Positions 17,907-39,205 of a stretch of 45,055 nucleotides of DNA are shown one piece after another. This stretch comes from a virus (lineage: Duplodnaviria > Caudoviricetes). Made by a program: the position numbers and the translations under genes. The DNA is taken from positions 1 through 45,055 of the IMG/VR virus record IMGVR_UViG_3300037515_000328, one strand, 5' to 3'. Every line of letters starts with the position of its first letter. The stretch's first letter is position 1. The notes under the pieces were generated by a model. It saw only the letters and a program-made list of their open reading frames with translations, had not been told where the DNA came from and did not search any database.

Positions 17907-20015
17907 CTATTTGTGATAGAATGCTTGAAATCTTACAATGTCCATATATTCAGGCGATTTTATAAGTCCGTCACCCATTCCTGAAAGCGATTCAGCTCCC
18001 GACTCATCTATAACGACCCTAGAGTCTGTTTCTTTAGGAACCCTGAAACATATTTGTACCGGGAAATTAACTTTTGCATCGCCTGTGATTACTTTTACTG
18101 ACGCCCTTTGGGTTGCTGCTATTACCCTAAACCCTGTTGACCGCCCCTTTTGAAGCAACACCCGCATGTTTTCCTCCAAAGACTTTAAATCTGCGATTTT
18201 AACACGTTGTGTTTTTGCTTGCGGAGACATACCCATTAACATGGCTTCTTTTGATAGTCTATAACTACCCACCTCTTGTACTTCAAAGACCTCTAATTCT
18301 TTTCCTTTTCTTGATGCGGACACGGCGTCTGCAAATTCATCGAACACAACCATTATTTTTTCCTTTCTGCCGTTCTTTACAAGTTCGTTCATGTATTCGA
18401 CAAGGTTCGCCATTTCTTCTTCTATCTCAATTATCTCATTAAATACCTGTACGCTTGAATCTTTTTGGTATGAAAGGAACTCATATTTTGGATCAAAAAT
18501 AACCACCCTGTCCACCTTTGCCAATTTAGCGTATTCAATGGTTGATTTTATCGAAACCGACTTACCGGACCCAGTTGCGCCGCAAACAAGTACGTGTGGG
18601 GTAGAATGGTTTTCAAGGTCCCAAAAAATAGTGTTGTCATAATTATCCTTTCCGATGGGAATTTTCATTCCAATCAATTCATCTTTATCCCAAACCAAAT
18701 CCTTTTCACGTTTTTTGGAAAACTCTATGGCGAGGTATGATTTTCCATCATGTATGGTCAAGTCCTTTGATACACGAATGTTTGAAACGTTCAATGCGTT
18801 TGCAAGGTCCAGCCTATAATTATGGATAGACGCTATTTTGGTGCCTGCCGAAACCTCCAGGAGATATGAATTACTGGAGTACCCACTGAATACATGTGCC
18901 ACCCTAACTATTATGCCGAACGTCCTTAGTACGTGCTCTATTTTTTCTTCTTTTGTCATGTCTTTGTTGCTTAGGTCGTATTGGATGAAATTGGATGCGT
19001 TCTGTTTGAATTTCTTTATAACTGTTGGGTTTACGGTTGTGATAGAAGCGTCCCTTATCTTTTTTAGACGCTTTGAAACAAGCTCCTTTTTTGATTCGTG
19101 TACATTGAAGTCCTCGACCTCCGAAATCATTGTCTTGGCCCAAAAATCATATATTTCAGCTCTATCTACGTAGTTATCGGAATCGTTTATAAGATAAACG
19201 TAATCAGGGTCATTTACCGCTTGTATCATCTTTCTAAGCGGCTCGTACAACAAAGCTTCATAAAGCCTTCTCACATCGTCCGTTAACTCTATTTTAAAGC
19301 AGTTTAGTTGTGGAGATTTATCCCTGTTGTTGGAATATTTATTCTCGACAAACCAAACTTCGTCAACAACTATACCTGTTTTTGCTTCATAAAGTTTTAC
19401 GTATGTGATTGCTTGAACACCTATTGAAAGGGCAAGCTCTTCTTCTGAAGAAAAATAACCCTTTGATTTGTGGTCAACTATAACTATTTTACCGTCCACA
19501 GTTTCGATGACCAGATCAATAATTCCGCTACATGGCAATGGAATGTCCACGCCGTTTATTGTGAGGAACTCAAAAGCTTTTACCTCAACGTCCAAAACCC
19601 TTTTTAAGCTGCTTTCGTATGTTGAAATCTCATAAAAGAAATTTCGTATTAGGTTAATTGATGTTGAGGTGGCTTTTTTAATGCATTCCTCTATCGTTGG
19701 AACGGTTTTTTGTATTTTCCATGAATCTGCGGATACATTTTCAATGTAGTCTATGGCCAACTTTTCAAGATCCACAATGTCTAATGTTTTACCCTCTTTT
19801 TTTGCATTAAAATAACCTTCCAATGCGAAATGGTATGCGTTACCGGATATTGCGGTGGCCGCTTTTTTATACCCATAACCATATATATAACTCATTTCAA
19901 AGGCCTTCTCGTTTCTTGCGAACTGCGTCACCTTAGAATAGCTCCACCTGTCAATTAAGAACTGGCTAAAATGTTCCTCAAGTTCTAATTCAGAATAGTC
20001 TTTGTATACACTCAT
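17907..20015 (-). CDS. PD-(D/E)XK nuclease-FtsK/SpoIIIE motor fusion
   Basis: N-terminal WSYS...GNAYH...GIIDLV...IVDHKS...QAITY; FtsK alpha-like region; PHVLVCGATGSGKS, FDEFAD, KGRSTG..VIAATQR, GAESLSGMGDGL. Confidence 0.85.
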   Translation of the reverse strand: MSVYKDYSELELEEHFSQFLIDRWSYSKVTQFARNEKAFEMSYIYGYGYKKAATAISGNAYHFALEGYFNAKKEGKTLDIVDLEKLAIDYIENVSADSWKIQKTVPTIEECIKKATSTSINLIRNFFYEISTYESSLKRVLDVEVKAFEFLTINGVDIPLPCSGIIDLVIETVDGKIVIVDHKSKGYFSSEEELALSIGVQAITYVKLYEAKTGIVVDEVWFVENKYSNNRDKSPQLNCFKIELTDDVRRLYEALLYEPLRKMIQAVNDPDYVYLINDSDNYVDRAEIYDFWAKTMISEVEDFNVHESKKELVSKRLKKIRDASITTVNPTVIKKFKQNASNFIQYDLSNKDMTKEEKIEHVLRTFGIIVRVAHVFSGYSSNSYLLEVSAGTKIASIHNYRLDLANALNVSNIRVSKDLTIHDGKSYLAIEFSKKREKDLVWDKDELIGMKIPIGKDNYDNTIFWDLENHSTPHVLVCGATGSGKSVSIKSTIEYAKLAKVDRVVIFDPKYEFLSYQKDSSVQVFNEIIEIEEEMANLVEYMNELVKNGRKEKIMVVFDEFADAVSASRKGKELEVFEVQEVGSYRLSKEAMLMGMSPQAKTQRVKIADLKSLEENMRVLLQKGRSTGFRVIAATQRASVKVITGDAKVNFPVQICFRVPKETDSRVVIDESGAESLSGMGDGLIKSPEYMDIVRFQAFYHK

Positions 20016-21711: not shown

Positions 21712-22037
21712 GCTGTAGGATTATTTAGGCCCATGGCCGTTAGATCTTCATTATATCCCATCCCCGCAATGGATTCGTATATCGGGAACACTACCGCCCT
21801 AATGGCGTTCTTTTTCGTTTCACAGTTGGTCTCCGAGTACTCCACTAAAAAGTAGTGGCAGAACTCGTACAGGCCCTCTATATCAGTCAATAGGTTGTAA
21901 GCGGGCTGCATATATTCGTTTGCATACTTTCCAAGTCCTATCCAGTACATTGGCGGCATTTGGTTTATGAACACCAGTGCTTTTGTCTGTTGCTTTCTGC
22001 GTTTTTTTAGAATTTTGATTATGTTTTTCATGGTCAT
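21708..22037 (-). CDS. Hypothetical protein
   Basis: ATGA overlap with the upstream gene. Confidence 0.6.
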   Translation of the reverse strand: MTMKNIIKILKKRRKQQTKALVFINQMPPMYWIGLGKYANEYMQPAYNLLTDIEGLYEFCHYFLVEYSETNCETKKNAIRAVVFPIYESIAGMGYNEDLTAMGLNNPTA

Positions 22038-22465
22038 GGGTTTAAAGTTTGCAAATAAGCCTTACAAGCGTTGTAAACGGCCTGTATACGCCTAAATTCT
22101 TCCGTATCCCTTTGGGTTTCGTAGACTTCATCCGAAGCAAAGAACTCGTCCCATTCTGAAACACTATGTATTTTGCATCCAATTTTAATTTTATCATCAA
22201 CCACGGAGTGGTCCCATTTGCAAAAAATGGGAAGGTCTGCCCCTCCAAGGTCTGCCCCTCTAAGGTCTGCCCCTCCAAGGTCTGCCCCTCTAAGGTCTGC
22301 CCCTCCAAGGTATGCCCCTCCAAGGTCTGCCCCTCCAAGGTATGCCCCTCCAAGGTCTGCCCCTTCTTTAACAGCTTTGTGCAATGTTTCTTTGATTGTG
22401 TTAGATTCTTTTTCATATTCAAAAAGAATTTTGCCTAATACTGATTTAATTTGAATTTTGATCAT
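22034..22465 (-). CDS. Pentapeptide-repeat protein
   Basis: Nine GA(D/Y)L(G/R/P) repeats followed by IKIGCKIHSVSEW. Confidence 0.9.
   Translation of the reverse strand: MIKIQIKSVLGKILFEYEKESNTIKETLHKAVKEGADLGGAYLGGADLGGAYLGGADLRGADLGGADLRGADLGGADLPIFCKWDHSVVDDKIKIGCKIHSVSEWDEFFASDEVYETQRDTEEFRRIQAVYNACKAYLQTLNP
22232..22366. repeat. Nine tandem 15-bp repeats (consensus aaggtctgcccctcc) encoding the pentapeptides
   Basis: Directly visible. Confidence 0.95.
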
Positions 22466-23045: not shown

Positions 23046-23501
23046 ATGAGTAGAGAAATAAAATTTAGAGCATGGGACGGTAAAAAAATGTGGTATGATG
23101 GGGATATATATCAGAATGGAAATGACTATAGTAGGTCGTATCCGTGCCAAGTTACAAACCGGGGAATTGAGTACATAAAAACTTACGAAACCAAATACAA
23201 GGAAACAATCCGAGATGAGCAAGGGCGGGAAGGATATCAGGCTTGGGATTTAGAAAAAACAAACTCCAAAGTAGAAATAATGCAATACACTGGCCTAAAG
23301 GACAAGAACGGAAACGAAATATACGAGGGCGATATTTGTAAATTTATCGACCATCCTACTGATGTTGATACATGTATTTCGTGTGTTAAGTTTTCAGAAG
23401 GTAATTTTATAGATGGATATATGGGGTGGCCTATAAATAATTATGGATCAGATTGGATTGAAATACTCGGCAACATCCACCAAAACCCCGAACTACCATG
23501 A
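23046..23501 (+). CDS. YopX family protein
   Basis: REIKFRAWD...MQYTGLKDKNGNEIYEGDI...EILGNIHQNPEL. Confidence 0.95.
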   Translation: MSREIKFRAWDGKKMWYDGDIYQNGNDYSRSYPCQVTNRGIEYIKTYETKYKETIRDEQGREGYQAWDLEKTNSKVEIMQYTGLKDKNGNEIYEGDICKFIDHPTDVDTCISCVKFSEGNFIDGYMGWPINNYGSDWIEILGNIHQNPELP

Positions 23502-23659
23502 CTGACCCCAAAGACCTAATAAACTGGGTAGCACTTTCCAAGCACTTAACGGGAAGGTCCAGTAATATATCAAGGACAAGGATACCAAAAAAGTATAGGG
23601 ACAAGGTATCGAATTTGATTATGTCCATTGAGATATGGGACAAACATTTAAAGAAATGA
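23498..23659 (+). CDS. 53-aa putative HTH-like protein (below the ORF-track cutoff)
   Basis: MTDPKDLINWVALSKHLTGRSSNISRTRIPKKYRDKVSNLIMSIEIWDKHLKK; ATGA overlaps at both ends. Confidence 0.65.
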   Translation: MTDPKDLINWVALSKHLTGRSSNISRTRIPKKYRDKVSNLIMSIEIWDKHLKK

Positions 23660-23892
23660 AAATAAATAAAACACACTTCGCATTACGATTGATAACCTTT
23701 CCTATAAAATTGGTGTTCACGCTTTTATGGCACCTACTTATAGGGGTCCTGTATTCAGTAAAATGGCTAAAGCACGGAGGACAGGAACTTTATTACAGCA
23801 ACGAGCACGGGGGTAATCTTGTCAAGTTAATAGAGAGCAACGAAAAACTAATTGATGCGTTAGGATATAAGGACGATGATTCTGAAGACTAA
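23656..23892 (+). CDS. Small membrane protein
   Basis: Likely start MKINK via ATGA overlap; hydrophobic helix. Confidence 0.6.
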   Translation: MKINKTHFALRLITFPIKLVFTLLWHLLIGVLYSVKWLKHGGQELYYSNEHGGNLVKLIESNEKLIDALGYKDDDSED

Positions 23893-23931: not shown

Positions 23932-24411
23932 CTATCCAACTGGATTTTTGGACCTAAGCCACCAAGCCAATGCAAAGAACAGTTGTCCAGGTATAAGTAT
24001 TATGGAAGCCCATTTACCGACCTCCCTTATCATTTCTATATTGGCCTTTTTTTCTATTTGTTTTGTCTTAATGTCGTATTCCCCTTTTATGTCCAATTGT
24101 TTTGTCTCTTCGGAATCGGGGCAATTAAATACTTGCCCCTGTAATTCTCCTTTAGGACCGTAACTACTGGTAACCGTTGCCCCTTTATCCCCTTTGACAA
24201 CGATTATCGTGTCTCTTGGGTTGGGCACCCTTGGAGCGGGCAATATGATCACATCTCCGGGCGTCCTTGTCGTTATAAGGGAATTGTCCACGAAACGTAT
24301 TCGTTCGGTAGACTTGTTCACCTTTCGGTCCTTTAGGATTCCACATGATGACATGAACAGTATAAGCGCCATTAGAACAGCTAACAGGAAATAGGAAAGT
24401 GATTTTTTCAT
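23932..24411 (-). CDS. Putative unimolecular spanin (u-spanin)
   Basis: Lipoprotein signal ...FMSS-CG plus C-terminal TM helix WASIILIPGQLFFALAWWL; directly after the endolysin. Confidence 0.7.
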   Translation of the reverse strand: MKKSLSYFLLAVLMALILFMSSCGILKDRKVNKSTERIRFVDNSLITTRTPGDVIILPAPRVPNPRDTIIVVKGDKGATVTSSYGPKGELQGQVFNCPDSEETKQLDIKGEYDIKTKQIEKKANIEMIREVGKWASIILIPGQLFFALAWWLRSKNPVG

Positions 24412-25055
24412 ACACCCAACATTTTAGCATAATATCTTGTCATGCGGATTCTCTCGTCCAATCCACGAAGACCGCCCTGTATCCCCCTGGTCAGGTCCGA
24501 CATTGATTTAAAGGTCATTTTCTCTGACAATCCCCAAAGCTTGTTCTTTTCAAAGTACCACATTGCGGATTCCCAATATAGCTCTGTAGATGCAATTTCT
24601 GGATTTTCTAGGACACCGTATCCGATCCAGTTGTTAAAACCCCTATAGTTGTATTTACCCGTGATCATTATGGCCCCACGGCCCCTATACTTCCATCCGT
24701 CACCCCATAGTTTATTCCCCAACAGATATCCTGAGGAACGGTTAACGTCCCAATATACCTTGTTGGCGATCGTTTCTTGGTCGGCTTTGTGGAGCAGTGT
24801 GCGCCCATCTTTCCACGCTTCCATTTTGTGGCTACGGTAATATGAGAAAGTAGAGATAAGTCCTGTCGCTGAATAGTTAAGGCTTTCTGTGTCGTGTTTG
24901 AACCCTCCCGTCTCATGGTGAAGCTGTCCCATGAAATTGGCTATCTGCACATCGGAAACGCCTATCTTTGATTGCATGGCCCTTAATGTTATAGGTCCGA
25001 TAATGCCATCCGACACCAGTCCATATTCTTGTTGGAACTCCTTTATTTTTTTCAT
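24408..25055 (-). CDS. Endolysin: PG-binding domain plus glycoside hydrolase family 19
   Basis: FQQEYGLVSDGIIGPIT; FMGQLHHETGGF; DGWKYRGRGAIMITGKYNY; likely start MKKIKEFQ at 25055. Confidence 0.9.
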   Translation of the reverse strand: MKKIKEFQQEYGLVSDGIIGPITLRAMQSKIGVSDVQIANFMGQLHHETGGFKHDTESLNYSATGLISTFSYYRSHKMEAWKDGRTLLHKADQETIANKVYWDVNRSSGYLLGNKLWGDGWKYRGRGAIMITGKYNYRGFNNWIGYGVLENPEIASTELYWESAMWYFEKNKLWGLSEKMTFKSMSDLTRGIQGGLRGLDERIRMTRYYAKMLGV

Positions 25056-25096
25056 AGGTTCTCGAGCTCGATTATTAACGAAACAAAAGCGTACAG

Positions 25097-25183
25097 TCAC
25101 CAAAAGATGGCGTGACAGGCGGCACCTACCACAAACCAGATCAAAGCCTTAAGTATTTCGGGAAGTTCTCTATATTTTTTCAT
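25097..25183 (-). CDS. 28-aa single-TM peptide in the lysis cassette
   Basis: MKKYRELPEILKALIWFVVGAACHAIFW; ATGA overlap with the holin stop. Confidence 0.4.
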   Translation of the reverse strand: MKKYRELPEILKALIWFVVGAACHAIFW

Positions 25184-25518
25184 TTTTTCCGTATAAAGTG
25201 TTCTATAATGTCCAGTATTGCATTTCCTATCCGTTCAAAATTGAACTGAAAAACTAGCCAGTAACCAACTTTTTCGCCCGTTATTGCCACTGCTGCGATA
25301 ACGGCACTTGCCCAGGTCGGGCTGAACTCGGCATGTATGATTGGACCAAGTATAACCGCAAACCCCAAGCCTATCACTATCGAGGTCAGTGCCTCCGTTA
25401 TGTTTATCTTCGTTTTTTTCATCTTTACTGCCAATCCGACACTAACGGCCACCAGTGCCGGGATTATTGTTTTCGTGAAAATTTGCAAGATTTCGTCTGA
25501 CGGTCTTTGCATGTCCAA
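25180..25518 (-). CDS. Putative holin
   Basis: About three TM segments, basic C-terminus, upstream of the endolysin. Confidence 0.65.
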   Translation of the reverse strand: MDMQRPSDEILQIFTKTIIPALVAVSVGLAVKMKKTKINITEALTSIVIGLGFAVILGPIIHAEFSPTWASAVIAAVAITGEKVGYWLVFQFNFERIGNAILDIIEHFIRKK

Positions 25519-25834
25519 TTTTTATTAAGAATACTATTAATGCCGTTCCTATCAACCAATAGTCGGACCCTACAAAGGTAGTTATATCAAAAATGGTCCT
25601 GTCCACTATGTTGCCGAAACAAAGTATTCCAAATGCCGTTAGGGACGCATTGGAAAAGTTGTTCTTTGGAAGAAAATTAAGGATCACAAGCAAAAAAACA
25701 ACTACCCCGCTCAATAGATCCCTTAATTTTCGCCACTCTGTTATATCGTCCAAGTAGAATTGTTCACATATCCAATACCCCGTGCTGTACAGCAACACAC
25801 TAAATATACTTAAAATTCCTACAATGTACCGCAT
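25442..25834 (-). CDS. Multi-TM membrane protein (lysis-associated)
   Basis: About four hydrophobic helices. Confidence 0.6.
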   Translation of the reverse strand: MRYIVGILSIFSVLLYSTGYWICEQFYLDDITEWRKLRDLLSGVVVFLLVILNFLPKNNFSNASLTAFGILCFGNIVDRTIFDITTFVGSDYWLIGTALIVFLIKIGHAKTVRRNLANFHENNNPGTGGR

Positions 25835-25839
25835 ATATC

Positions 25840-26253
25840 CTATGTTTTTGGTCCACCTGGTTTTGTCGGGTCCACCGTGTCATCCGCTATTGTGTCAGGT
25901 TTCGCCTCTCTCCTTCTCAATAGCCAATATTGGAACAGTATAGCAATCACCAAAGAAAACTGTATAGGATCCATATTGGTGCTGTTCATAGCTTCTTTTA
26001 CCCACGAAAGGTCCAACCCCCCTACTTTCAGTATATCGATTATTATATCGCCCAATTTTACAGTTATAAGGGTAAGGAACAGTCCCCTGACAACATCTAC
26101 TATATTGTCGCCTATCCAGAAAGATATGGAGAATTTTGTTTTTCGCTTGTAGGCCATTGCCTTCACAAATAGGATCCCTATCATGGCCCACCCTATGGCG
26201 TTGCCCCAAAGTTTCCATGTATTTTCAATTACTTGTTCTGCTACTGTTTCCAT
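25840..26253 (-). CDS. Membrane protein (holin-like)
   Basis: About three TM segments; FSISFWIGDN motif. Confidence 0.55.
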   Translation of the reverse strand: METVAEQVIENTWKLWGNAIGWAMIGILFVKAMAYKRKTKFSISFWIGDNIVDVVRGLFLTLITVKLGDIIIDILKVGGLDLSWVKEAMNSTNMDPIQFSLVIAILFQYWLLRRREAKPDTIADDTVDPTKPGGPKT

Positions 26254-26264
26254 ATATTAATTGT

Positions 26265-29033
26265 TTAGTTGTCTCCTACTGTTATTTTTCCAAATCCACT
26301 TCCTATACCTATCCTTGCTCCTGATCTAATTGTTACTCCAATAGTAGGTATAAACTCGTAGGCTCCTATATCAAAGGCTGATCCTTGTGGCCTTGTAGTA
26401 CCTACGATGTCTGTCGTATATATCGTAGTGGCTCCTAGATCTATAAGTAAACTACCTTGCTGCAATGTAAAATCATTGGTTGCTGCATTGGTGAATAATG
26501 GATCATGGGCCGTTATGTTTGTAAAACCACCTCCCGATGGAGTGGCAAAAGAATTGTTATAATAATTCTCCTTGTTGGATGTCACATTTGTTCCACTACT
26601 ACTGTTAAGGTAATTTATGGCTGCGGACGCTGTTTGGTCCATCCATATATTATTCTCCAATACCCAATCTTCAATATCTATGTTTGTCCTTATGCCTCCT
26701 ATACCATTACTGTAAAAAACATTGTTCTTGAGGATCCATCCTATAACAGGAGTTGATCCTACAATATTTCCAATTGTTTCCTGTATTTGGACAGCTTTGT
26801 CCGTTCCTGCTATAATATTGTTGATAAAAACATTATTATCCCCTACACAATCGCAATCGGTGGGTGGCGAAGCTGCTCCATCATCGTACATTTCCCCAAG
26901 AATACCTTGATATGTACCAAGTACTATATTTCCATCAATCAAGTTATCATGTGCGCCATTCGTTATATGTATCCTTGCAGTACTACCCTCAACAAAATTT
27001 CTTAAGTATTGATTGTCAAAAGTATCCGAAAAGGTCATTTCTATTTTGGTCCTGTAGGCATAGTTGTCCCTATAGATATTATTGTTTCCTGATTTGATAT
27101 CGTATCCGTGACCTGCGTGTGATCCGTCATGCCACCTATATATCCTGTTCCCTTCATATACATTAAAAGCCCCATTTTCTGTAGTAGTAGCCCTTACCGT
27201 CATATAATAGTCGGTCTGTGCCCCAACGACATCACTGTGATATTCATTATATGAAATAAGGTTATTATTTCCTCTTACTAAAAATGCTTCAGCAGATACA
27301 TTCTGTCCGTAACTGTTTTTGACAACCCAATCGTTTCCTATAATCCTTACTCCAAACCCTTTATAGACATCTCCTGTTTGGGGGCCAAGTTCAAAGAATC
27401 CAATATTGTCCAAAAGCCCATTGTTTCCATTTCCTACAAAACCGAAGTTAAATCCTGTAACAACTATATTTTTTAATTGGATATAGTCCCCGTTAATATA
27501 AAAAGCATCGGTATCCTCTGTCCCGCCCGACCTGGTTATAACAGGCATGTTTGTATCAGAGGTGGTCATTCCGAAATTAATAGAAGATAGAGTGACCGAC
27601 TCTATATCATTTATGGTCGTATCATATCCGATGAACTGTATGGGCGATTCAAGAGTCCCGTCCTGTGAAATGGATAATGCGGCAGATCTGTTATACACCC
27701 CTTTCTTAACGTATACAATGTCTCCGGCAACAACTTGGGTAATGGCATAGGCCAAATCCCAAGGACTTCCCTCGGTCAATCCTGTATTTCCCGAATTTCC
27801 ATCATCGGCAACATAGTACACCCCAGTATCAATAGAGCATTCTAAGGCCGTTTCTACATAACTATATCCGGTTATATCTATTGGAGAGCCTTCGGTATAT
27901 GTGTTGTTTGTGTCAATCTGTATCTGTCCATAATCAGTACCTTCATTGTAACTGTATATGGATGCCCCAAATATAGATGATACCCCAAACTCAGAATTGC
28001 AGATGTCAAAATCACCCATGTCCACAGTGAAGGCCACGCTTGCCCCTGTAAATATACAATTCCTGAATGCTGAATTTGAGGTATTGGTAGGGATGACCCT
28101 GCCATCATAGCCTAGTCCAATGAACGTTACCCCTTCGAAAATTATGTTGTCTCCTCCCGTGGCCTGACTTCCCGTGCCAAAAGCTACTAATCCAGATTTA
28201 GTTCCTTCCTGTATATTGGGATTACTTGGTGAGGGGTCTGAAATGGTTCCTCCGATAACAGTTGTATTTCCTGAAAATATTTTAAGGTTCCTTCTTTCCC
28301 AGTCGTATAGATCCATATTGTTTATTTCCAATGATCCTAGGGAACCGCTCATATTTATATTTACGGAGAAAACGGCCATTGTCTGGGCATCCTCTCCCCA
28401 GCAATCATGGACCGATGCATTTTTGATAGTTATTTTTGTAGTACTTGTAGGTACTTCCCTCCAATATATCAAATATCCGTTTGCCGCACCCCAAGCATCT
28501 GTAAGATTAGAGTTTGAAGTACCCACTATATCATATACATCACACCCATCAAAAATCCAATCCCCATAGCTATCACCATCGTTATAGTAGTTAATGTAGA
28601 ATCCCGCTGGGCTGACCTCTAATACAGGCTGCCTAAAACTAAATATATCCACGTTAGTGAAAACAACCCTTGAATCTACTTGTATCCCCCTATATGCGAC
28701 TTCGTTCCCATCCATTATAAGATCGGTCATTGTTGTAGTGCCACCATTTGCAGACCTCTTGTCCACTTCCATCATCGGGTTAAGCGCGCTATTGGTTGTT
28801 ATGGTTGCACCGTTCCAATCAATTATCTGTCCAGAAACAATATCTATATCGATCCTTGAGCTTATACGAAACGTGGCTCCAGGATCTGCAATCAAGCTTA
28901 CCTCTGCATCCAAAGCGGCCTGTAGTTCCGCTGTATCATCAGCAACACCATCCCCGACCGCTCCGTAAGTTGAAAAGTTTACTTGCCCATAAGAGCAAGC
29001 GGATAAAAAAAATATGACTATGAATTGTTTCAT
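26265..29033 (-). CDS. Signal-peptide-bearing two-domain right-handed beta-helix protein (pectin-lyase-fold depolymerase-like)
   Basis: MKQFIVIFFLSACSYG-Q; YGAVGDGVADDTAELQAALD; second domain YYVADDGNSGNTGLTEGSPW; C-terminal FTLQQGSLLIDLG...RPQGSAFDIGAYEF. Confidence 0.85.
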   Translation of the reverse strand: MKQFIVIFFLSACSYGQVNFSTYGAVGDGVADDTAELQAALDAEVSLIADPGATFRISSRIDIDIVSGQIIDWNGATITTNSALNPMMEVDKRSANGGTTTMTDLIMDGNEVAYRGIQVDSRVVFTNVDIFSFRQPVLEVSPAGFYINYYNDGDSYGDWIFDGCDVYDIVGTSNSNLTDAWGAANGYLIYWREVPTSTTKITIKNASVHDCWGEDAQTMAVFSVNINMSGSLGSLEINNMDLYDWERRNLKIFSGNTTVIGGTISDPSPSNPNIQEGTKSGLVAFGTGSQATGGDNIIFEGVTFIGLGYDGRVIPTNTSNSAFRNCIFTGASVAFTVDMGDFDICNSEFGVSSIFGASIYSYNEGTDYGQIQIDTNNTYTEGSPIDITGYSYVETALECSIDTGVYYVADDGNSGNTGLTEGSPWDLAYAITQVVAGDIVYVKKGVYNRSAALSISQDGTLESPIQFIGYDTTINDIESVTLSSINFGMTTSDTNMPVITRSGGTEDTDAFYINGDYIQLKNIVVTGFNFGFVGNGNNGLLDNIGFFELGPQTGDVYKGFGVRIIGNDWVVKNSYGQNVSAEAFLVRGNNNLISYNEYHSDVVGAQTDYYMTVRATTTENGAFNVYEGNRIYRWHDGSHAGHGYDIKSGNNNIYRDNYAYRTKIEMTFSDTFDNQYLRNFVEGSTARIHITNGAHDNLIDGNIVLGTYQGILGEMYDDGAASPPTDCDCVGDNNVFINNIIAGTDKAVQIQETIGNIVGSTPVIGWILKNNVFYSNGIGGIRTNIDIEDWVLENNIWMDQTASAAINYLNSSSGTNVTSNKENYYNNSFATPSGGGFTNITAHDPLFTNAATNDFTLQQGSLLIDLGATTIYTTDIVGTTRPQGSAFDIGAYEFIPTIGVTIRSGARIGIGSGFGKITVGDN

Positions 29034-29593
29034 TAATTCGTTTTTATGGCGCTAAGGTTATCAATGAAAATATTGTCCCCTGCAACGCCCGAAGTGCTTG
29101 CCGAAGCGTAGAACCTTAGCTGGGCGGTGCCAGTTGCTGTTGCTGTTATATCGTAAGAATAGAATGTCCATGAAGATGGTGGGTTTACACTTGATGGACC
29201 ACCCGTAACGTTCGTCCAAGCGGTTATCCTGTCAAGTGTTCCCTGTGTCGATTTGGCCCAAAAAGATACGGTAAACGTATCACCAGATGTTATGGTAAGG
29301 GTAAAGTGTACATAAGACACAAGTCCTCCCGCTGTGACCCCTTTGATTGCGTACAGTCCTGTTTGAGGTTCCGCCGAATCGGACGTCATTGTTATTGACG
29401 TTCCTGCCCACAACGATGTCCCGTCGGTCTCATTACAATTGGGGTCTGATGTGGCGTTTGCGGTCGTATTCTGTTCGTTGGGGTCAGGAGTGCATCCCCC
29501 AGCCTGTTGTTGGCTCGCAATAAGTAATGCGTCCCATTGGGCTGCTCCTAAAAGAGGAACAAGAAATAATATTATGTAAATTAGTTTTTTCAT
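29033..29593 (-). CDS. Signal-peptide-bearing carbohydrate-binding (CBM4/9-like jelly-roll) protein
   Basis: MKKLIYIILFLVPLLGAA-Q; GDTFTVSFWAKS...WTFYSY...IFIDNLS. Confidence 0.75.
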   Translation of the reverse strand: MKKLIYIILFLVPLLGAAQWDALLIASQQQAGGCTPDPNEQNTTANATSDPNCNETDGTSLWAGTSITMTSDSAEPQTGLYAIKGVTAGGLVSYVHFTLTITSGDTFTVSFWAKSTQGTLDRITAWTNVTGGPSSVNPPSSWTFYSYDITATATGTAQLRFYASASTSGVAGDNIFIDNLSAIKTN

Positions 29594-29595
29594 AC

Positions 29596-30627
29596 TTATG
29601 GAAGTTCAACGAAAAAGTAGTAGACAGTTGTGCCTACCGACTTAAGGCAAATGAGCATATTAGTAGCCGCGATGAAATCAGCAGTGTTAGGTAATTGTGT
29701 CGCCCCTGTTATGGCTGGTTCCGTTGCTTCATTTATAAGTATTTCAGCATAGCCCCCTGGTCCTGCCCCTGTAAGTGTAAATGTTGCAGTGTCCACGGAA
29801 CTATCATCTATGTACGTGAATCCGCTCATATCTATAACGGTTCCTGTTATCGTCTCTGCTGGGGTGGCGTCGGTACTTATCCATATGTCCTCTGCATCCA
29901 AAGTTGCTGCTGCTTTTTGGGCTTCTGTCCCTGCTCCTATCCTTATTCCTGTCAGGCCGCTATCGGGGTGCTCTTGTATCCCGCCCATTAGATTGATCCC
30001 TCCGTAGTAAATTCCATCAGCGTCCCAACTCAAGGATGTTATGGTGTTGCTCGTGTGTCTTAAGTTTATGCTTTGAGACCCAACAGCTGTGGCATTACCT
30101 AGATTGAAAGTATTAAAATACCCATCTTCAAACGATTGAAATTCCTGTCCCATTATGGCATCATCATCAAAAACGGCACGAATGTTCCTTACATATAAGT
30201 CACCAGTCATAGGCCTTGAAGCCCCCCCCACTCTCGCAAGAAACTCAGTATTTATTTCGTTTATAGCCCCCTGCACGGTTGTGGCTGCTATGTCTCCCGC
30301 AGGTGTGTTCGATAATTTAGTTCCCGCAATCGCAGCACTGGTATTTACATCGGCATTTAATATTGTCCCATCCAATATTTTCGCAGATGTCACAGCATCA
30401 TCATTGATGATCGCCGTTGTTCCAGAACCGCCTATTGTGAGGTCGCCAACGTTGCCATCGGGACCTAAAGAGTCCGTCCGCCAAACAGTAGATCCTAATT
30501 CCACATCAATAGAATCGACTATTTGTTCCCCGGTTATTTTCCCCCCTCCGGTCCTTATCCTGTACCTGTTTTGCGAAAAACCTAAAAAAGATATAAGAAA
30601 TATGGATATTAACAATATTTTTTTCAT
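29596..30627 (-). CDS. Signal-peptide-bearing fibre-like protein
   Basis: Start MKKILLISIFLISFLGFS-Q at 30627; fibre-like segments DAVTSAKILDGTILNADV, IAATTVQGAINEI, MTGDL. Confidence 0.75.
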   Translation of the reverse strand: MKKILLISIFLISFLGFSQNRYRIRTGGGKITGEQIVDSIDVELGSTVWRTDSLGPDGNVGDLTIGGSGTTAIINDDAVTSAKILDGTILNADVNTSAAIAGTKLSNTPAGDIAATTVQGAINEINTEFLARVGGASRPMTGDLYVRNIRAVFDDDAIMGQEFQSFEDGYFNTFNLGNATAVGSQSINLRHTSNTITSLSWDADGIYYGGINLMGGIQEHPDSGLTGIRIGAGTEAQKAAATLDAEDIWISTDATPAETITGTVIDMSGFTYIDDSSVDTATFTLTGAGPGGYAEILINEATEPAITGATQLPNTADFIAATNMLICLKSVGTTVYYFFVELP

Positions 30628-30629
30628 AA

Positions 30630-31574
30630 CTATAGATTTTCTATTACATACCAAACATTTATCTCTATTGTTCCCGCCCCTCCTGAAATTGATGTTCCGG
30701 TGCTCCTAAGGCTCACTGTCATGGGGATGTTTTCAAGGTCGGTCACCCTTGTACTTGATGAAGATGAAAAATTCGGAAGTTCAGAAGAGTTATATTTCCA
30801 AACCTTTCCTGTAGCCGTGTAATCATTTGTATGAAGGACAAGAAAGAACTCCTTATAAGTAGGTGCGTCCCAGCCTAAGTACAAAAAAGGATTGGTTCCC
30901 GCAGGTGTATACACAGAGGTTATATTGCTTTTTATTAACACCCTGTCTACCACTATCACCTTTCCTAATCCCGGAGCGGGTATAACCTCTATATTTGTCT
31001 CGGTATCATAGGTTAAATCCGTCAATATGACTTGTTGAAAATTAAAATCATTTCCGGGATCCGCCCCATCCACTTCTATTTCCAATCTATCCACCCCGGT
31101 TGGGGGATCTGGTAGACCGTCTAGGTAGGCTCTATTTCCCCAATCAAATTGAATACCATTAACATTAATACTGCCAAAATCTTTTTGAGCCACCCTTGCG
31201 CTGTCTACACTTATTTCGTTAGTGTTTATGTTAATTCCGTTGCCTTCTGAAATCACATCCTGTTTCAATGCGAATTCGTCAAACACCGCCCCCCCGGCAA
31301 CTGCGTTCGGGCTTCCGTCTATTATGGTGGGGTCTATTGTTATGGATCCAAACTCTACCCAATCTGTTCCATCCCATTCCTCCCATTGGGAAATCCCCAC
31401 GTCTTTGTGGTACAGAATGGTCCCAAGTTTAGGGGTTAGATTGTCCCTGTCCATCGTGGACAAAGTGTCTGGCTGTACAAATTCGGTCCTTATTCCGTCC
31501 CTGAATCTGTCGGGTGTCTGCCCAATAACAATCATCGAAAACAAAAATGCCGCTATAAATAATATATTTTTCAT
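30630..31574 (-). CDS. Signal-peptide-bearing fibre-like protein
   Basis: MKNILFIAAFLFSMIVIG-Q; WDGTDWV, GSPNAVAGGAVFDEFALKQDVISEGNGININ. Confidence 0.75.
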   Translation of the reverse strand: MKNILFIAAFLFSMIVIGQTPDRFRDGIRTEFVQPDTLSTMDRDNLTPKLGTILYHKDVGISQWEEWDGTDWVEFGSITIDPTIIDGSPNAVAGGAVFDEFALKQDVISEGNGININTNEISVDSARVAQKDFGSINVNGIQFDWGNRAYLDGLPDPPTGVDRLEIEVDGADPGNDFNFQQVILTDLTYDTETNIEVIPAPGLGKVIVVDRVLIKSNITSVYTPAGTNPFLYLGWDAPTYKEFFLVLHTNDYTATGKVWKYNSSELPNFSSSSSTRVTDLENIPMTVSLRSTGTSISGGAGTIEINVWYVIENL

Positions 31575-31575
31575 C

Positions 31576-32277
31576 TTAATAAAGTCTTACCGTTACTTTT
31601 TCCCCCACTTCAAGGTCATACAGGATCGTTACCTCATCACCTGTTATTATATAGTCATCGTCCAAAAACTGCCAAACCCTTCCCACGTATACGTCCACGT
31701 TTGTAGGCGTTCGGCTAAGGGTAAAAGTGAAAGGTCCAGTTGTCCATGTAAATTCCTCCTTTGTGGAAACCTCAACGCCTTCCAATTTATCCTTTTCAGC
31801 AGTAGAAAAGTTATTTAATGTTACCCCTGCCTCTGTTCCGTTGCCTAGTGGAATTACAGCATCTGTTCCCGTATCACTTGCGACCGTTCTGGTGGTGGCA
31901 TCCCCCGAAGTGGATAGGTTGGTGGTTCCAACACCCGCCGTTAACAATATCCAAGAACTTCCGTTATTCTGGTACAGGGAAGTTCCGTTCCTTACATACC
32001 AATCTCCTATGCCAAAACTTCCAGGAGGCGTTACGTTCGGGTCCGCTGTCCCTGTGTGTATATCAAACCCAGAACTACCTGAATTTACGATCTCGTTTAT
32101 TGCGGCCACTATGCTGCTTTGGTCAGTGGTCGCCAATGAGCCTAGGTCCCCTACCTTATTGTTGGGCTGTTCCAGCATGGCCACAAGCACTGGGCGCAGC
32201 ACGTTGGCCGTAATTTCGTTGTTGCCGTTCGCAATGATATACAAGTTTATCAGTGCCAATACCTGTGCCTCTGTCAT
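31576..32277 (-). CDS. Fibre/adaptor protein
   Basis: N-terminal IIANGNNEITANVLRPVL; VGDLGSLATTDQSSIVAAINEI; C-terminal DYIITGDEVTILYDLEVGEKVTVRLY beta-sandwich. Confidence 0.7.
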   Translation of the reverse strand: MTEAQVLALINLYIIANGNNEITANVLRPVLVAMLEQPNNKVGDLGSLATTDQSSIVAAINEIVNSGSSGFDIHTGTADPNVTPPGSFGIGDWYVRNGTSLYQNNGSSWILLTAGVGTTNLSTSGDATTRTVASDTGTDAVIPLGNGTEAGVTLNNFSTAEKDKLEGVEVSTKEEFTWTTGPFTFTLSRTPTNVDVYVGRVWQFLDDDYIITGDEVTILYDLEVGEKVTVRLY

Positions 32278-32873
32278 AGCTGTGTAATATAAAAATCATT
32301 CGAGTAATCGTCTGAAAAATCACCCCCCAAAAGTTCGCCTATCCCTGAAAAATCGTTGTCAAAGTTTATTTTGTCACCACTATAAACATAAGGAATGTCA
32401 TCTTCTGGATATTTGCTTACCAAGCTCAATCCAATGCCTCCCAGTCCGTTCTGAGCTTCGTAAGAATAGTCTACCGTTGTCAATCCGTTTTCAAAGCCAT
32501 AGATCTCCACGGTACCGTCCCTGAACTGTATCGCCGCAAAATAGTTCGCAAGGTCCAGTTCCTTTAATATCAATTTCGTTTCTATACTGACCCCTATAAC
32601 AGGGATGTTCACCGTGTGGTCATATAGCGGTTGTCCCTTCCTTGTGGACTTGCTGAAGCTTGCGGAATACAGGCTCCCGATTTCGTTGCCTATGTATTTG
32701 TATCCGGTTGCCCCATCCACCAAATTGAAATTAATCGAATGCCCTACATTGCTCACATCATAAGAAACCTCGTTCACGTCCTCTAGGTTTACAAGGACCA
32801 CCTGCTGCCAGTACTTTCGTAGCGGTAGTTCACATCGGACGTCATGTCCCCTCATAAGTTCCTTACAGGCCAT
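32274..32873 (-). CDS. Tail-tube-like structural protein, paralogue of 35370..35960
   Basis: Shares RKY(W/Y)QQ, DGTVEIYGF(E/V)NGLTT and DYSY with 35370..35960; extra C-terminal GGDFSDDYSNDF. Confidence 0.7.
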   Translation of the reverse strand: MACKELMRGHDVRCELPLRKYWQQVVLVNLEDVNEVSYDVSNVGHSINFNLVDGATGYKYIGNEIGSLYSASFSKSTRKGQPLYDHTVNIPVIGVSIETKLILKELDLANYFAAIQFRDGTVEIYGFENGLTTVDYSYEAQNGLGGIGLSLVSKYPEDDIPYVYSGDKINFDNDFSGIGELLGGDFSDDYSNDFYITQL

Positions 32874-33429
32874 ACTTGCTTATGTTACTTCCTTTTATTC
32901 CGTACCCCTTTGACTTGGTCTTTGACCCGCATTTACCGTTGCAACCACAAGGCTTGCAATCAAAATCTGCATCCGTATATACTTCTTTGTTAAGACAAAT
33001 GTATGCCTCCACTTCTTTCCATTGCTCAAAGGCCATGGACCTATAGCCGTCCGACACCTGTTTCAAATCCGAAAACGGTTTGGGGATGGACCAATCGTTT
33101 GATTTTGTCACCCCCCCGTTCGGGGTATCATCAAAGTTGTTACGGATGGTATACCTTGCGTAAGAGTACCGTATCAATACATTCTTTAGGCCCTCATGGG
33201 ACCTTCTGCGTCCGTTGCATCCCTCGAACTCTTTAGGAGAAACAAGGTCGAACCATTCGCCCTCCGTATCTTCCCAATTATCCTCCACATCAAAGAAAAT
33301 ATCGCACAACAACGGCTTAAGGTCGAACAGTATCGCCTCATTGATGGCTATCTGCAACTTTTCAAGGTTGCAATGTTTCGCCACAAGACCGATAGGATAG
33401 AAATCCTCTTTACTCAATTCTATTGCCAT
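32863..33429 (-). CDS. Putative head-tail adaptor
   Basis: Follows the portal; EAILFDLKPLL...GLKNVLIRYSYARY...TPNG. Confidence 0.6.
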   Translation of the reverse strand: MAIELSKEDFYPIGLVAKHCNLEKLQIAINEAILFDLKPLLCDIFFDVEDNWEDTEGEWFDLVSPKEFEGCNGRRRSHEGLKNVLIRYSYARYTIRNNFDDTPNGGVTKSNDWSIPKPFSDLKQVSDGYRSMAFEQWKEVEAYICLNKEVYTDADFDCKPCGCNGKCGSKTKSKGYGIKGSNISKYGL

Positions 33430-34801
33430 CTGCTATATCTGGTTTTCCAAGAAGGGACGCACTTATGTCCCTGCTAAATCCGTAAATTTCCATTAATATG
33501 GTAATTGCACTCTCGAAATCCGTCAATCCCTGGCTAACGGATGACTGTATTCCAAGTATTCCCTGAACACCTCCAACGGAGCCCCTAAGTGCTGCCTGTG
33601 CCTGCAACGTTTCATCGCTTGCCTCTGGGCTTGCCTCCACTTCGTCCGTTGGTTTGGCCTCCGTACCGTCAAAATCCAAGAAATTGAACTCAAATCCAAG
33701 TTTCCAAAAGGCCTCCTCGATCTTTTGCCGCTCCCATTCGCACTGTTCCCAATAGAACTGTTTCATCTGCTTGTAGCTTTCACCGCTCCCTGCAAATAGG
33801 GTCGTAGCGTCCGCAAACGCAAGCCCCTCTGGGAGGTTGTTTGCTGCCCCAAGGATGTTCTTTCTTATGTTAGGCATGACAACGGAGAATTGTTTGTCGT
33901 CGAATTGTGATTTTATCTGTACGACCTTAAGAACGTTGTCGAGATTTTCTATTTGCTCAACGTCCAAGTGGTATACGTCCGAACTACCTTCTGCCCCTAG
34001 CCAATTGGCAATGTCCGTCTTTATTTCCTTTGCTGATTCTTCGTCCAATCCCTGTGTAAGTACCGCCATTTTGCCCAAGAACCCCCCGCGCGTGGAGGTG
34101 TTGAAGTAAACGCTTATCCTGTACTCCGTGTCAAGGTCGTTAAAAACAGGGTCGAATTTGCTAATGGAATATCGGTACTTTGGGGTAAGATTAACATACA
34201 TCACCTGTCCCCGATAGTGCTTTATTTTCTCCCCTAGTTCATCACCTGTGTATTTTGCCAACTTTGCGTCTGCATCTATCTGCTGCATGACGACCGATTG
34301 GGACGGGTTGAAGGGGTAATATTTTCGTTTGTAGTCCTTTTCCTTTTTGGTAACGGTCCTATCTTGTTTATTGAAATGCTTGTACAATATCATTCCTTTG
34401 TTGCCGTCGTCATCGTCCTCCGAAATACGGCACTTATGGTAATCCAAGGACTTTGGGGTTTTGGGAAGTATAAGAACGTTTCCATCTTCGTCCGTTTCAA
34501 TTCCATATGTAGTATGTATGAACGCCCCATATTGCATTGAAATATCGTCCACGACATCCTTTGCCACTTCCGAAAGCAAAGTGCCGTTGTCCAGTTTTAG
34601 ATTAAGGTCCTCGGTTATGCCCGACCCGAAAATGAACTTGGAGAACATGACCTGTGCCCTCGCCCCCGTCGGGGAGTTTGATACAACCCTTTCGATCTCT
34701 TCGGAATAGTCGTTATTTTCCCCGTTCCAAAAAACTTTCTCTTGTTCCTTGAATGGGGTAACTTTTTTCCAAAGTTCGATAAGGGTCGCTCTAACCTTCA
34801 T
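33410..34801 (-). CDS. Portal protein
   Basis: 463 aa; NGENNDYS...SPT...G.G pattern of Bacteroidota phage portals; head-module context. Confidence 0.7.
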   Translation of the reverse strand: MKVRATLIELWKKVTPFKEQEKVFWNGENNDYSEEIERVVSNSPTGARAQVMFSKFIFGSGITEDLNLKLDNGTLLSEVAKDVVDDISMQYGAFIHTTYGIETDEDGNVLILPKTPKSLDYHKCRISEDDDDGNKGMILYKHFNKQDRTVTKKEKDYKRKYYPFNPSQSVVMQQIDADAKLAKYTGDELGEKIKHYRGQVMYVNLTPKYRYSISKFDPVFNDLDTEYRISVYFNTSTRGGFLGKMAVLTQGLDEESAKEIKTDIANWLGAEGSSDVYHLDVEQIENLDNVLKVVQIKSQFDDKQFSVVMPNIRKNILGAANNLPEGLAFADATTLFAGSGESYKQMKQFYWEQCEWERQKIEEAFWKLGFEFNFLDFDGTEAKPTDEVEASPEASDETLQAQAALRGSVGGVQGILGIQSSVSQGLTDFESAITILMEIYGFSRDISASLLGKPDIADGNRIE

Positions 34802-35369: not shown

Positions 35370-35960
35370 TTAACTCCCTACAGCAAAGGCATCATCGAAA
35401 TCCTCGTTTTCCTGTCCAGGCACCGCACTTTCGTACACTAATGGTAGGCTACCCTCTGGGGCATCTTCCAAAGAAGAAAGTATGATCTGGGTTCCACCGC
35501 CCCCTTCTTGTACGTTATAGGAGTAGTCCCCTGTAGTAAGACCGTTCACGAAACCATATATCTCCACGGTGCCATCCTTTAACTGAAGGGCTACAACGAA
35601 AGACCCTTTGTCCAACGAATCCAAGATACATTTAGCTTCCTCGGTAACCCCTGTGATAAGAATGCCCACATTGTGGATATACTGTGGATAACCAAGATCG
35701 CTACGTGACTTGTCAAAAGAACCATAGAACGAACTTCCCGCCTCGGTCCCTATGATAGGGTAGCCAGTGGTACCTGCCTTAAGGGCAAACGCAACCTTGT
35801 AGTCGCATACCTCTGTCTCTGGATCTGGCAACGTTATCGTGGACGTATCGATATCGGTCTTATTGATAAGCACCGCCTGTTGGTAATATTTCCTTGCAGG
35901 GGCTATACAGCTACCATCGTAACTGTTGAACAACCTTGCGCATGTTGATGTAACTGCCAT
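35370..35960 (-). CDS. Putative major tail (tube) protein
   Basis: 196 aa, acidic and beta-rich, directly after the capsid gene; ends EDFDDAFA. Confidence 0.6.
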   Translation of the reverse strand: MAVTSTCARLFNSYDGSCIAPARKYYQQAVLINKTDIDTSTITLPDPETEVCDYKVAFALKAGTTGYPIIGTEAGSSFYGSFDKSRSDLGYPQYIHNVGILITGVTEEAKCILDSLDKGSFVVALQLKDGTVEIYGFVNGLTTGDYSYNVQEGGGGTQIILSSLEDAPEGSLPLVYESAVPGQENEDFDDAFAVGS

Positions 35961-37047: not shown

Positions 37048-38166
37048 CTATTTTTTGTTGTTAGTAGTTTTGTTCTTTCTCCATTGCGCCACTGTGGCCG
37101 AAATGGTTTCCTTTTTCTTGTCCTTATCCTTTGGATCCGTATCAGGCCCTTTAGAGGAACCTTTAAGCTTGGCTATAGTAGCCTCCGCAATTTTAAGTTT
37201 GCTCACCGCTTCGTCACGTTCTTTCCTCATTCCGGTCACTTCTGTTTCGATGGCCTCTACCCTCCCGGATAGTTCGGCAGTATATTCCAATGTGGCGGCC
37301 AAAGCTTCCACAAGTTCGTCCGTGGTAACATCGTCTTCATCTTCCGAAGCTGGATCCACGATTTCTTTTACCACGCTGTCCACGAAAACGTATGTTTTAC
37401 CGTCCTGGCCCACAACGTTAACGGGGGCTTCCTCTGTTCCGCCAACGGGCTGTCCCGCCAATGTGGCACGTGCTCCAACTTCGATAACGGCGTCTTCCGC
37501 AAGGTCCGGGAACATTAGTTCCTGTTCGTCTGCGGTGAAGATCATTTTATTTACCTCCTTGTCAAAAATAGCTTTAAGGATGGTCTGCAATCTGTTTTTC
37601 TTGGACATCGTATGTTGTTTTTTGTTCTTACTATTTTTATTTGCCGTGGCGGCAATCTTCAAATCGGTGTTTGCGGTTACAAACCCAAGATCGGAAAGTT
37701 GTTGTTCGGTAAGCCATGTTTCGTTTTTGAGCAACGGGGCAATGGCCTCCTTATTAAGGTTCAGTTCCTTTGTATAGAATCCTATCACTTTTCCCTCTAC
37801 GTCCCTAAGATGCTTGGAGTGGTCCTCCATTTCCTCCGCTGTGGCAAAAGAAATGCCCCCCATCGGAAGGTGTATCATGAATTGGGTATTCGGCTTTACC
37901 AATCGCTTATGTCCGGCCATGAATATCACCGTGGCGATACTCGCTACCATTCCGTCCCCGATAGTAGTAACTGGAAGCCCAAGGGATTTAAGGAAGTTGA
38001 ATATATCAAAGCCCGTTTCTACAATTCCACCTTCGGAATTTATGTAGACTTCAAAGGAAGTGGCCTCTGGTTGTTTGCGGACCTGCGAAATGACGTCGAT
38101 CAGCTCAATGCCCTTTTCTTCGTCCCAAGAACCTATCTGCCCTGATATATTAATTCTTCCAACCAT
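37048..38166 (-). CDS. ClpP-like (S14) prohead protease with C-terminal scaffold-like extension
   Basis: YINSEGG, VASIATVIFMAG, FMIHLP, ETWLT; acidic coiled-coil C-terminus; likely start ATG 38166. Confidence 0.9.
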   Translation of the reverse strand: MVGRINISGQIGSWDEEKGIELIDVISQVRKQPEATSFEVYINSEGGIVETGFDIFNFLKSLGLPVTTIGDGMVASIATVIFMAGHKRLVKPNTQFMIHLPMGGISFATAEEMEDHSKHLRDVEGKVIGFYTKELNLNKEAIAPLLKNETWLTEQQLSDLGFVTANTDLKIAATANKNSKNKKQHTMSKKNRLQTILKAIFDKEVNKMIFTADEQELMFPDLAEDAVIEVGARATLAGQPVGGTEEAPVNVVGQDGKTYVFVDSVVKEIVDPASEDEDDVTTDELVEALAATLEYTAELSGRVEAIETEVTGMRKERDEAVSKLKIAEATIAKLKGSSKGPDTDPKDKDKKKETISATVAQWRKNKTTNNKK

Positions 38167-38185
38167 ATAACAAAAGTTATAATAA

Positions 38186-38218
38186 TTGGCCAAAAAGTCG
38201 TATTTTTGACCAAAAGAC
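38186..38218. promoter_or_regulatory. Direct repeat TTG(G/A)CCAAAA at 20-bp spacing upstream of the late head operon
   Basis: ttggccaaaa at 38186 and ttgaccaaaa at 38206. Confidence 0.35.
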
Positions 38219-38521: not shown

Positions 38522-38522
38522 T

Positions 38523-38747: not shown

Positions 38748-38778
38748 CATTAAGTTTTTTCGTACATTTATATCAAAT

Positions 38779-38847: not shown

Positions 38848-38859
38848 TTAACCAAAATC

Positions 38860-39201: not shown

Positions 39202-39205
39202 GTTT

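Follow-up and report, generated by a model that had tools for sequence, protein, structure and literature searches.

Tailed phages are taught to be assembled wholly in the cytoplasm. Why, then, should such a phage carry consecutive late genes whose products begin like substrates of the host secretion machinery? The question is raised by a viral genome of 45,055 nucleotides (Caudoviricetes; IMG/VR record IMGVR_UViG_3300037515_000328), analysed here over its whole length and termed the window, in which four open reading frames (ORFs A to D) between positions 26265 and 31574 each encode a signal peptide-like leader followed by Gln. We consider it probable that A to D form the outer branches of a receptor-binding complex, which would be exported by the host Sec pathway and would dock onto the virion at lysis.

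Four adjoining genes with a leader and Gln

All four ORFs lie on the minus strand. ORF A (30630-31574) encodes 314 amino acids (aa) with a leader at residues 1-18 and Gln19. ORF B (29596-30627; 343 aa) and ORF C (29033-29593; 186 aa) likewise have a leader at 1-18 and Gln19, and in ORF D (26265-29033; 922 aa) the leader covers residues 1-16 and is followed by Gln17. The leader of ORF B begins at the ATG at 30627; the TTG start at 30654 given by the ORF finder lies nine codons upstream. An initial annotation of the window had quoted these N-termini and had described the genes as abutting one another between a fibre adaptor and the lysis genes. Both statements hold: the four N-termini were found as quoted, and the spacing from the adaptor gene (31576-32277) through ORFs A to D is 1, 2, 2 and -1 bases, which leaves no room for a promoter between the four ORFs. 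The lysis block begins, with a membrane gene, 11 bases beyond the end of ORF D.

Leaders were scored with a heuristic of our own design, not SignalP, which asks for a basic n-region, an uncharged hydrophobic core and a small residue followed by Gln, and which was composed with the four N-termini already known. It selects 4 of the 74 ORFs, exactly ORFs A to D. Of 178 internal Met starts it selects none, and of 200,000 random N-termini matched in composition it selects 26. Three further ORFs have a leader by these criteria but no Gln; one of them encodes the protein at 23932-24411, which by the same heuristic is the only ORF product with a lipobox; none of A to D has a lipobox Cys at +1, which speaks against a lipoprotein route through signal peptidase II for them. 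Moreover, no C-terminal sorting domain of the type IX secretion system (T9SS; Por_Secre_tail, TIGR04183 or TIGR04131) was found on A to D in Pfam and NCBIfam at E ≤ 0.05, in agreement with the initial annotation, which speaks against the T9SS route as well. Among Bacteroidetes substrates of signal peptidase I (SPase I), about 71% carry Gln at +1, which is cyclised in the periplasm (PMC10653852; this and the other articles given by PMC number are cited from the parts of their text that were available).

The homologues do not generally lack the leader, contrary to the refuting case set by the initial annotation. We classed 64 of the 149 non-self matches to mature ORF B as relatives of its tip domain; 50 have a leader and Gln, none has a leader without Gln, and 14 have no leader, several of which seem truncated and some of which are plainly leaderless. 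The remaining 85 match generic repeats only and comprise 16 proteins with a leader and Gln, 10 with a leader without Gln and 59 with neither. The N-terminal domain of ORF A (60 aa) is common to eight relatives, all of them leader-bearing fibres: 8/8 have a leader-like start and Gln, one without its first residues, and 3/8 end in the tail-fibre chaperone domain PF13884. Among seven relatives of ORF D, classified by eye, three have a leader and Gln, two lipoprotein-type leaders, one a non-Gln leader and one none. Leader sequences diverge, yet their n/h/c structure and the Gln are kept across families and morphotypes. We conclude that the leader pattern is real, conserved and specific. Leader-plus-Gln genes of up to 2,200 or more codons also occupy the fibre slot of otherwise unrelated Bacteroidota-type phage contigs, some podovirus-like, that were found through a short adaptor match (L008-L011, L016, L017 and L019).

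The same arrangement occurs in cultured phages. In phi19:1 (gp101-104), phi10:1 (gp91-95) and phi18:3 (gp85-87), 12/12 consecutive genes encode leaders, 11/12 of them with Gln (gp104 has Lys), and 11/12 bear the GenBank note "annotation based on experimental MS/MS proteomics analysis", which refers to tandem mass spectrometry (MS/MS) of virions. The note is missing from phi10:1 gp95 and also from the adjacent membrane and lysis genes; the small gene ahead of the block carries it in phi10:1 (gp90). ORF C is 45% identical to phi19:1 gp103, one of the proteins so noted, and ORF D is 39.5% identical to gp104. The same leader blocks are found in phi19:3, phi46:3 and Ingeline, and the public records of these Cellulophaga and Ingeline homologues do not mention leaders. 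Leaders are absent from phi4:1 gp46-53, phi18:1 gp52 and gp59-62, and crAss001 gp21-26. In phi4:1, gp48 and gp50 are homologues of ORF D, gp48 holding both ORF D halves in swapped order, and gp53 ends in an adaptor-like small domain (independent E-value 1e-5 to 1e-4); all three leaderless proteins are MS/MS-noted virion proteins.

Two further Ingeline genes have leader-like starts: gp43 (L023 34360-36519; 719 aa), which follows an S49 peptidase gene, has a leader-like N-terminus without Gln, and gp45 (L023 37508-38140; 210 aa) is an isolated leader-plus-Gln gene outside the fibre block.

Fibre-like modules and a leaderless adaptor

The mature parts of A to D look like separately encoded partners of a receptor-binding complex, with predicted fibre, lectin or depolymerase domains. 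The C-terminal domain of ORF A is similar to clusters with 90-100% viral members, one of them fused to a cement domain, which we treat as a lead only. ORF B consists of fibre repeats and a C-terminal tip domain, with tail and fibre matches to PHROG 2012 and 35419. The carbohydrate-binding module (CBM)-like domain and the double beta-helix that the initial annotation had seen were recovered too: ORF C has a predicted CBM4/9-like sugar-binding domain (PF02018, E 2e-4, below the cut-off), and ORF D two predicted right-handed beta-helices at about 17-403 and 406-900, followed by a short C-terminal tail. The first half of ORF D shares 55-57% identity with host-type lipoproteins, and Arenibacter proteins belong to their cluster; the second half resembles lyases of the Pel9A/PL6 type, which in Bacteroidota have look-alikes with T9SS tails, and includes a choice-of-anchor Q motif (NF041518) at 850-894. 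ORF D is a putative polysaccharide lyase or depolymerase. The modules are shuffled: five proteins combine the ORF A N-terminal domain with the ORF B tip, and P0214 joins a leader-bearing fibre to the ORF C domain. In sequence searches, neither ORF D nor the ORF B tip nor ORF C had a significant PDB match, and related-locus queries with ORF D and with the ORF A domain brought up no true relatives from viral and metagenome contigs, L026 being a chance match.

The adaptor (31576-32277, minus strand) is leaderless, as are all 62 relatives inspected by eye at their starts. It consists of an N-terminal helical anchor, a hinge, a short shaft and a small C-terminal beta domain, and no receptor-binding domain could be recognised in it. 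An AlphaFold2 monomer model from 39 sequences (mean pLDDT, the predicted local distance difference test score, 74.7) has the helical anchor, the hinge and a poorly modelled shaft, and predicts an all-beta C-terminal domain at about 171-233 (pLDDT 84-93). Residues of about 166-233 (31576-31782) form a predicted XD-type branching, or docking, domain. A profile of the adaptor C-domain family, in which pooling distant with window-like rows was our assumption and was later undone as a check, matches PDB 9K4A at 119-171 (E 1e-13) and CBA120 TSP4-N at 200-247 (E 5e-6); the distant rows alone match the same 9K4A stretch with E 1.8e-5. Since the 250-residue TSP4 crystal does not include XD3, TSP4-N 200-247 corresponds to XD2, which is among the TSP4 domains that mediate binding of other tailspikes (PMC8825819). 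Addition of a second receptor-binding protein (RBP) in Klebsiella phages requires a docking peptide as well as the branching domain (PMC13352976). The branching domain is absent from the four complete fused fibres described below, save for a marginal late-iteration match in L061b, and a PDB sequence search with the full close-relative adaptor profile found nothing significant. We regard the XD assignment as good for the adaptor family and as suggestive for the adaptor of the window.

A peptide, NQ(N/K)LIYWR(Y/I), ends the last enzyme of Cellulophaga blocks, leader-bearing and leaderless alike (L001 11986-13326, L004 9947-11197, L023 29193-30497 and L025 14809-17607), and is a candidate docking peptide; the tail of ORF D differs from it.

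Next to the adaptor, a tube-like protein (32274-32873, minus strand) with an Asp/Phe-rich tail, DFSDDYSNDF, is a paralogue of the putative tail tube protein at 35370-35960 (42% identity over 187 aa, E 1e-42). Where related loci include upstream DNA, the gene ahead of the anchor gene encodes an orthologue of this protein that ends in a DFNxDF tail. We infer that this protein is part of the virion, where it is likely the ring that holds the adaptor. The fibres may be located at the neck and not at the tail tip, since a second tube-like copy, at 35370-35960, adjoins a head-tail adaptor-like DUF6712 gene. A comparable pair lies elsewhere in the genome: the tail-tip hub gene, which spans the origin (44575-45027 and 1-1530, minus strand), ends in FSNAFSNAFDI and is followed by a short leaderless fibre (44036-44569, minus strand). 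Hub and short fibre repeat the pattern of tube-like protein and adaptor, which suggests that fibre anchors are generally held by a Phe-rich hook. The N-terminus of the short fibre, a possible independent RBP, shows a weak similarity (35% over 37 columns, E 0.063) to the anchor of the adaptor, and the protein weakly matches the C-terminus of the phi17:2 gp47 tail fibre.

The relation between leader-bearing and leaderless fibres can be followed within the family of the adaptor. An alignment search yielded 26 viral loci and 9 loci of the bacterial collection, 8/9 of the latter being short matches in non-Bacteroidota records. We examined 25 loci, namely 24 viral ones and L028, and left out one duplicate contig and one contig ending at the match. 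At 12 of the 25, a short leaderless anchor gene is directly adjoined by a gene with leader and Gln; two have a long anchor and then such a gene (directly in L048, as the second gene in L037), four (L039, L046, L055 and L061) have a long leaderless fibre reaching up to the lysis genes and no leader gene, and six end too early for classing. With the window added and near-copies merged, a leader gene follows 12 of 13 short versus 1 of 6 long anchors (Fisher P 0.003, or 0.017 if L037 is counted as leader-type), in a set whose rows are related to each other and two of which, L050 and L053, lie on one contig. In a tree of the upstream tube-like gene the two states are interspersed, with 6 changes, at least 4 of them forced by well-supported branches; a number as low is reached in 110 of 500 shuffles, five of the nine "fused" labels belong to contigs that end early, and the window forms a long branch.

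The clearest pair is L046 and L056, whose upstream genes are 99% identical. L046 encodes a leaderless 822-aa fibre whose residues 1-156 are 81% identical to the 219-aa adaptor of L056, and whose C-terminal 140-160 residues are similar to the tips of the leader-plus-Gln proteins of L056 (44%) and L058 (51%). L055 and L053 likewise have a tip in common. Because split tips match the ends of fused fibres at the same slot, the leader protein in the adaptor family is, as judged by sequence, the separately encoded distal portion of what is a single-piece fibre in other members. The lysis blocks are alike after both types of fibre slot. A dedicated export helper is rejected, as the downstream membrane genes are present in both states.

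A proposed assembly at lysis and its alternatives

In the assembly that we propose, the late operon would provide capsid, tail, tube-like ring and bare adaptor in the cytoplasm. A to D would pass through the host Sec machinery, SPase I would trim their leaders, the new N-terminal Gln would be converted to pyroglutamate, and the proteins would fold in the periplasm, where they should stay because they have no T9SS tail. It is established for lysis in diderms that holin lesions and spanin-driven membrane fusion occur; these events would mix periplasm with cytoplasm, and only then would the branches clip onto the adaptor (31576-32277) of the finished virion. The order would be adaptor, A, B and then C and D: A or B would sit on the adaptor, and C and D, farther out, would bind or cut sugars. 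The initial annotation had listed periplasmic maturation with docking at lysis through this adaptor beside release as an enzyme and remodelling of the cell surface. The first option is favoured by the MS/MS-noted leader homologues, the swap between fused and split fibres and the branching-like adaptor domain; the other two we favour less. On a broader scale we lean, by a narrow balance, towards the view that many Bacteroidota tailed phages are built in two compartments, with head, tail and bare adaptor made in the cytoplasm and all distal branches in the periplasm (by Sec, SPase I and glutaminyl cyclase), so that virions would be armed only at lysis and close relatives would flip between the exported and the fused state by one gene cassette.

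Several observations weigh against docking at lysis. The evidence for presence in virions is a GenBank annotation note, and co-purification is possible; moreover, the small adaptors phi19:1 gp99 and phi18:3 gp83 do not carry the note. The window-like C-domain rows alone match the 9K4A stretch at E 0.041, the distant and window-like profiles compare with a pairwise E of 4e-4 and an hhalign probability of 34%, and a hidden Markov model of the distant rows did not detect the C-domain of the window adaptor. The C-terminal domains of the L028 and Cellulophaga adaptors differ from the branching domain. One of the 25 loci (L042) has a short adaptor and no leader gene after it, and a fused-fibre match was found for 5 of 21 leader proteins, the four of the window not being among them. 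The second leaderless fibre at 44036-44569 means that A to D may be unneeded for adsorption. Finally, D-(S/T)-(A/I/L/V/M/T), the O-glycosylation motif of Bacteroidota, is neutral in ORFs A to D (8 versus 9.8 expected) and depleted in leaderless proteins, namely in the structural proteins of the window (5 versus 13.2) and partly in the phi4:1 fibres (18 versus 27.9).

The second leaderless fibre is also consistent with the view that A to D are exported and cleaved and never join a virion. They could act as soluble or vesicle-borne depolymerase, lectin or decoys that clear capsule or exopolysaccharide at lysis, or on the infected cell, where they would block other phages. The resemblance of ORF D to secreted bacterial enzymes, in its lipoprotein likeness, its T9SS-tailed look-alikes and its choice-of-anchor Q motif, fits this view, which is most plausible for ORF D and may hold for it alone even if A to C dock. 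For the block as a whole we consider it unlikely. The MS/MS note is on 11/12 genes of the homologous slot and not on the neighbouring membrane proteins, the tip domains are interchangeable with those of anchor-fused fibres, and the adaptor, with its branching-like domain and without a tip, would be left partnerless. The lack of a T9SS tail argues against it as well, and a long-lived role on the lysogen surface is less likely because no integrase was found among the 51 ORFs compared. Export and virion association would equally be explained if A to D went past the outer membrane, or were held at the inner membrane before lysis, and the virions collected them outside or at the membrane. Such a pick-up agrees with the leader of phi19:1 gp104, which lacks Gln, so that pyroglutamate is not needed by all members. 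Since A to D have neither T9SS tail nor lipobox, and the leader state is not accompanied by any helper gene, the membrane genes downstream being common to both states, we judge it rather improbable.

Slightly more doubtful still is that the leaders are unused for the virion form, as relics of captured host genes or because of internal starts, and that assembly is cytoplasmic as usual. The same domains work leaderless in phi4:1 and in the fused relatives, so that the periplasm is not required for their folding, and Met at codon 14 of ORF A is the start of the database gene call P0001. ORFs B, C and D, however, have no Met in the leader or in the next 40 residues. Moreover, leaders occur on all consecutive genes together or on none, and their sequences diverge while the n/h/c structure and the Gln are retained across families and morphotypes. 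The glycosylation motif speaks against unused leaders too, being under-used by the leader proteins of relatives: those of the adaptor family have 21 occurrences versus 39.0 expected, compared with 25 versus 24.6 in fused fibres (contrast P 0.03), and those of the Cellulophaga phages 13 versus 34.1 (contrast P 0.15). This under-use is expected if only leader proteins meet the periplasmic transferase, and leans towards, though it does not decide for, leader proteins avoiding periplasmic glycosylation.

Returning to docking at lysis, export would be optional, because leaderless versions exist. Our preferred guess for its origin is that secreted host modules were captured with their route intact. 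Sugar-tagged fibres are unsupported, given that ORFs A to D show no motif excess and the relatives show depletion. A need for disulphides as the reason for export is not indicated by the Cys content, as leader proteins (3.1-5.9 per 1000) and leaderless ones (4.9-6.8) are not separated.

Known systems, host and genome

Branched RBP complexes are known from CBA120 (TSP1-4; TSP4-N, PDB 7REJ/7RFO/7RFV; PMC8825819), G7C (gp66/gp63.1) and Klebsiella phage KP32 (RBP1/RBP2; PMC13352976). With the adaptor, A to D would work like such a complex: as in these phages, there are separately encoded candidate branches of fibre and depolymerase type, and an anchored primary protein with an XD or branching domain is suggested. 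Unlike in those complexes, the primary protein here lacks a tip. Moreover, the available text of the CBA120 and KP32 articles does not describe secondary proteins with export leaders (PMC8825819, PMC13352976), whereas here every candidate branch has a leader and Gln. Closer counterparts are the "structural proteins" of phi19:1 (gp101-104) and phi10:1 (gp91-95) (Assiduviridae), of phi18:3 (gp85-87), phi19:3 and phi46:3 (Pachyviridae) and of Ingeline (gp31-34; Duneviridae). There too, consecutive leader(+Gln) genes stand between a small leaderless gene and a lysis block, and gp103 and gp104 are the homologues of ORFs C and D; the adaptor domain and genome backbone, however, are different, and ORFs A and B share short segments only. 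The leaderless gp46-53 cluster of phi4:1 and phi17:2 (Lightbulbvirus), with its gp53 end domain and the ORF D halves in gp48, would be the cytoplasmic version of the system.

Virion proteins with Sec-type leaders are known from filamentous phages of the Inoviridae (coat proteins pIII and pVIII), which assemble in the membrane and are then extruded. The phage described here, unlike them, is tailed: its genome includes genes for a portal, terminase, tape measure and lysis. In 2023, SPase I leaders with Gln at +1 were noted on proteins encoded by Nixviridae prophages of Porphyromonas gingivalis; those proteins differ from ours, being five near-identical non-fibre proteins of 144-148 aa, of unknown function, for which outer membrane modification was proposed (PMC10367356). 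The main text of PMC8776804, as far as available, does not use the term signal peptide, and PMC13288928 concerns phi18:1, phi18:4 and phi38:1, of which the phi18:1 fibres are leaderless in our analysis. No description of exported virion fibres of Bacteroidota phages was found in full-text searches of the open literature, subscription papers and bioRxiv supplements being beyond reach. The suggestion of the initial annotation that the system is undescribed therefore agrees with the literature searched, and is narrowed by the P. gingivalis prophage proteins (PMC10367356) and by the Cellulophaga homologues in public records. What is new here is the swap between fused and split fibres among close relatives and the suggested link to the branching domain.

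If docking at lysis is correct, siphoviruses and podoviruses of a phylum abundant in sea, freshwater and soil would complete their assembly across the inner membrane at lysis. It would explain how secreted host lectins and lyases are taken over as receptor-binding modules without prior loss of their export signal, and it predicts that free branches are exchangeable between co-infecting phages. Pipelines that discard signal-peptide proteins as non-virion would miss receptor-binding genes. These points are testable on cultured phi19:1, phi10:1 and phi18:3, with phi4:1 as leaderless control.

The ends of the window overlap by 43 bases with one mismatch, and it is a complete, circularly permuted phage genome. 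The terminase subunits (4523-6255), portal (33410-34801), ClpP-type maturation protease (37048-38193), tape measure protein (41365-44034) and GH19 endolysin (24408-25103, minus strand) identify a long-tailed phage. No integrase was found among the 51 ORFs compared with PHROGs, a set that does not include the smallest ORFs. The host is likely a member of the Flavobacteriaceae, since L028, a contig of a Flavobacteriaceae metagenome-assembled genome, is the sole clear match of the adaptor family in the bacterial collection, since ORFs C and D have homologues in Cellulophaga phages and since an ORF D relative belongs to a cluster with Arenibacter proteins. The lysis block (23932-26253, minus strand) comprises three small membrane proteins, the endolysin and the spanin-like lipobox protein at 23932-24411.

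Among the virion genes, between those for the tape measure and the protease, lies one for a two-domain GT2-like glycosyltransferase (39623-40831, minus strand), whose second half is 44% identical to phi18:1 gp41, likewise located in a head module; its target could be capsid or tail proteins or DNA. A 702-aa protein (17907-20015, minus strand) has an exonuclease-like N-terminus fused to an FtsK/SpoIIIE-like ATPase, and a small protein (22034-22465, minus strand) contains a run of GADLGGAYL/GADLRGADL pentapeptide repeats. Two small plus-strand islands (23046-23892 and 38339-39400) encode small membrane proteins and proteins of unknown type, the rest of the genome being on the minus strand.

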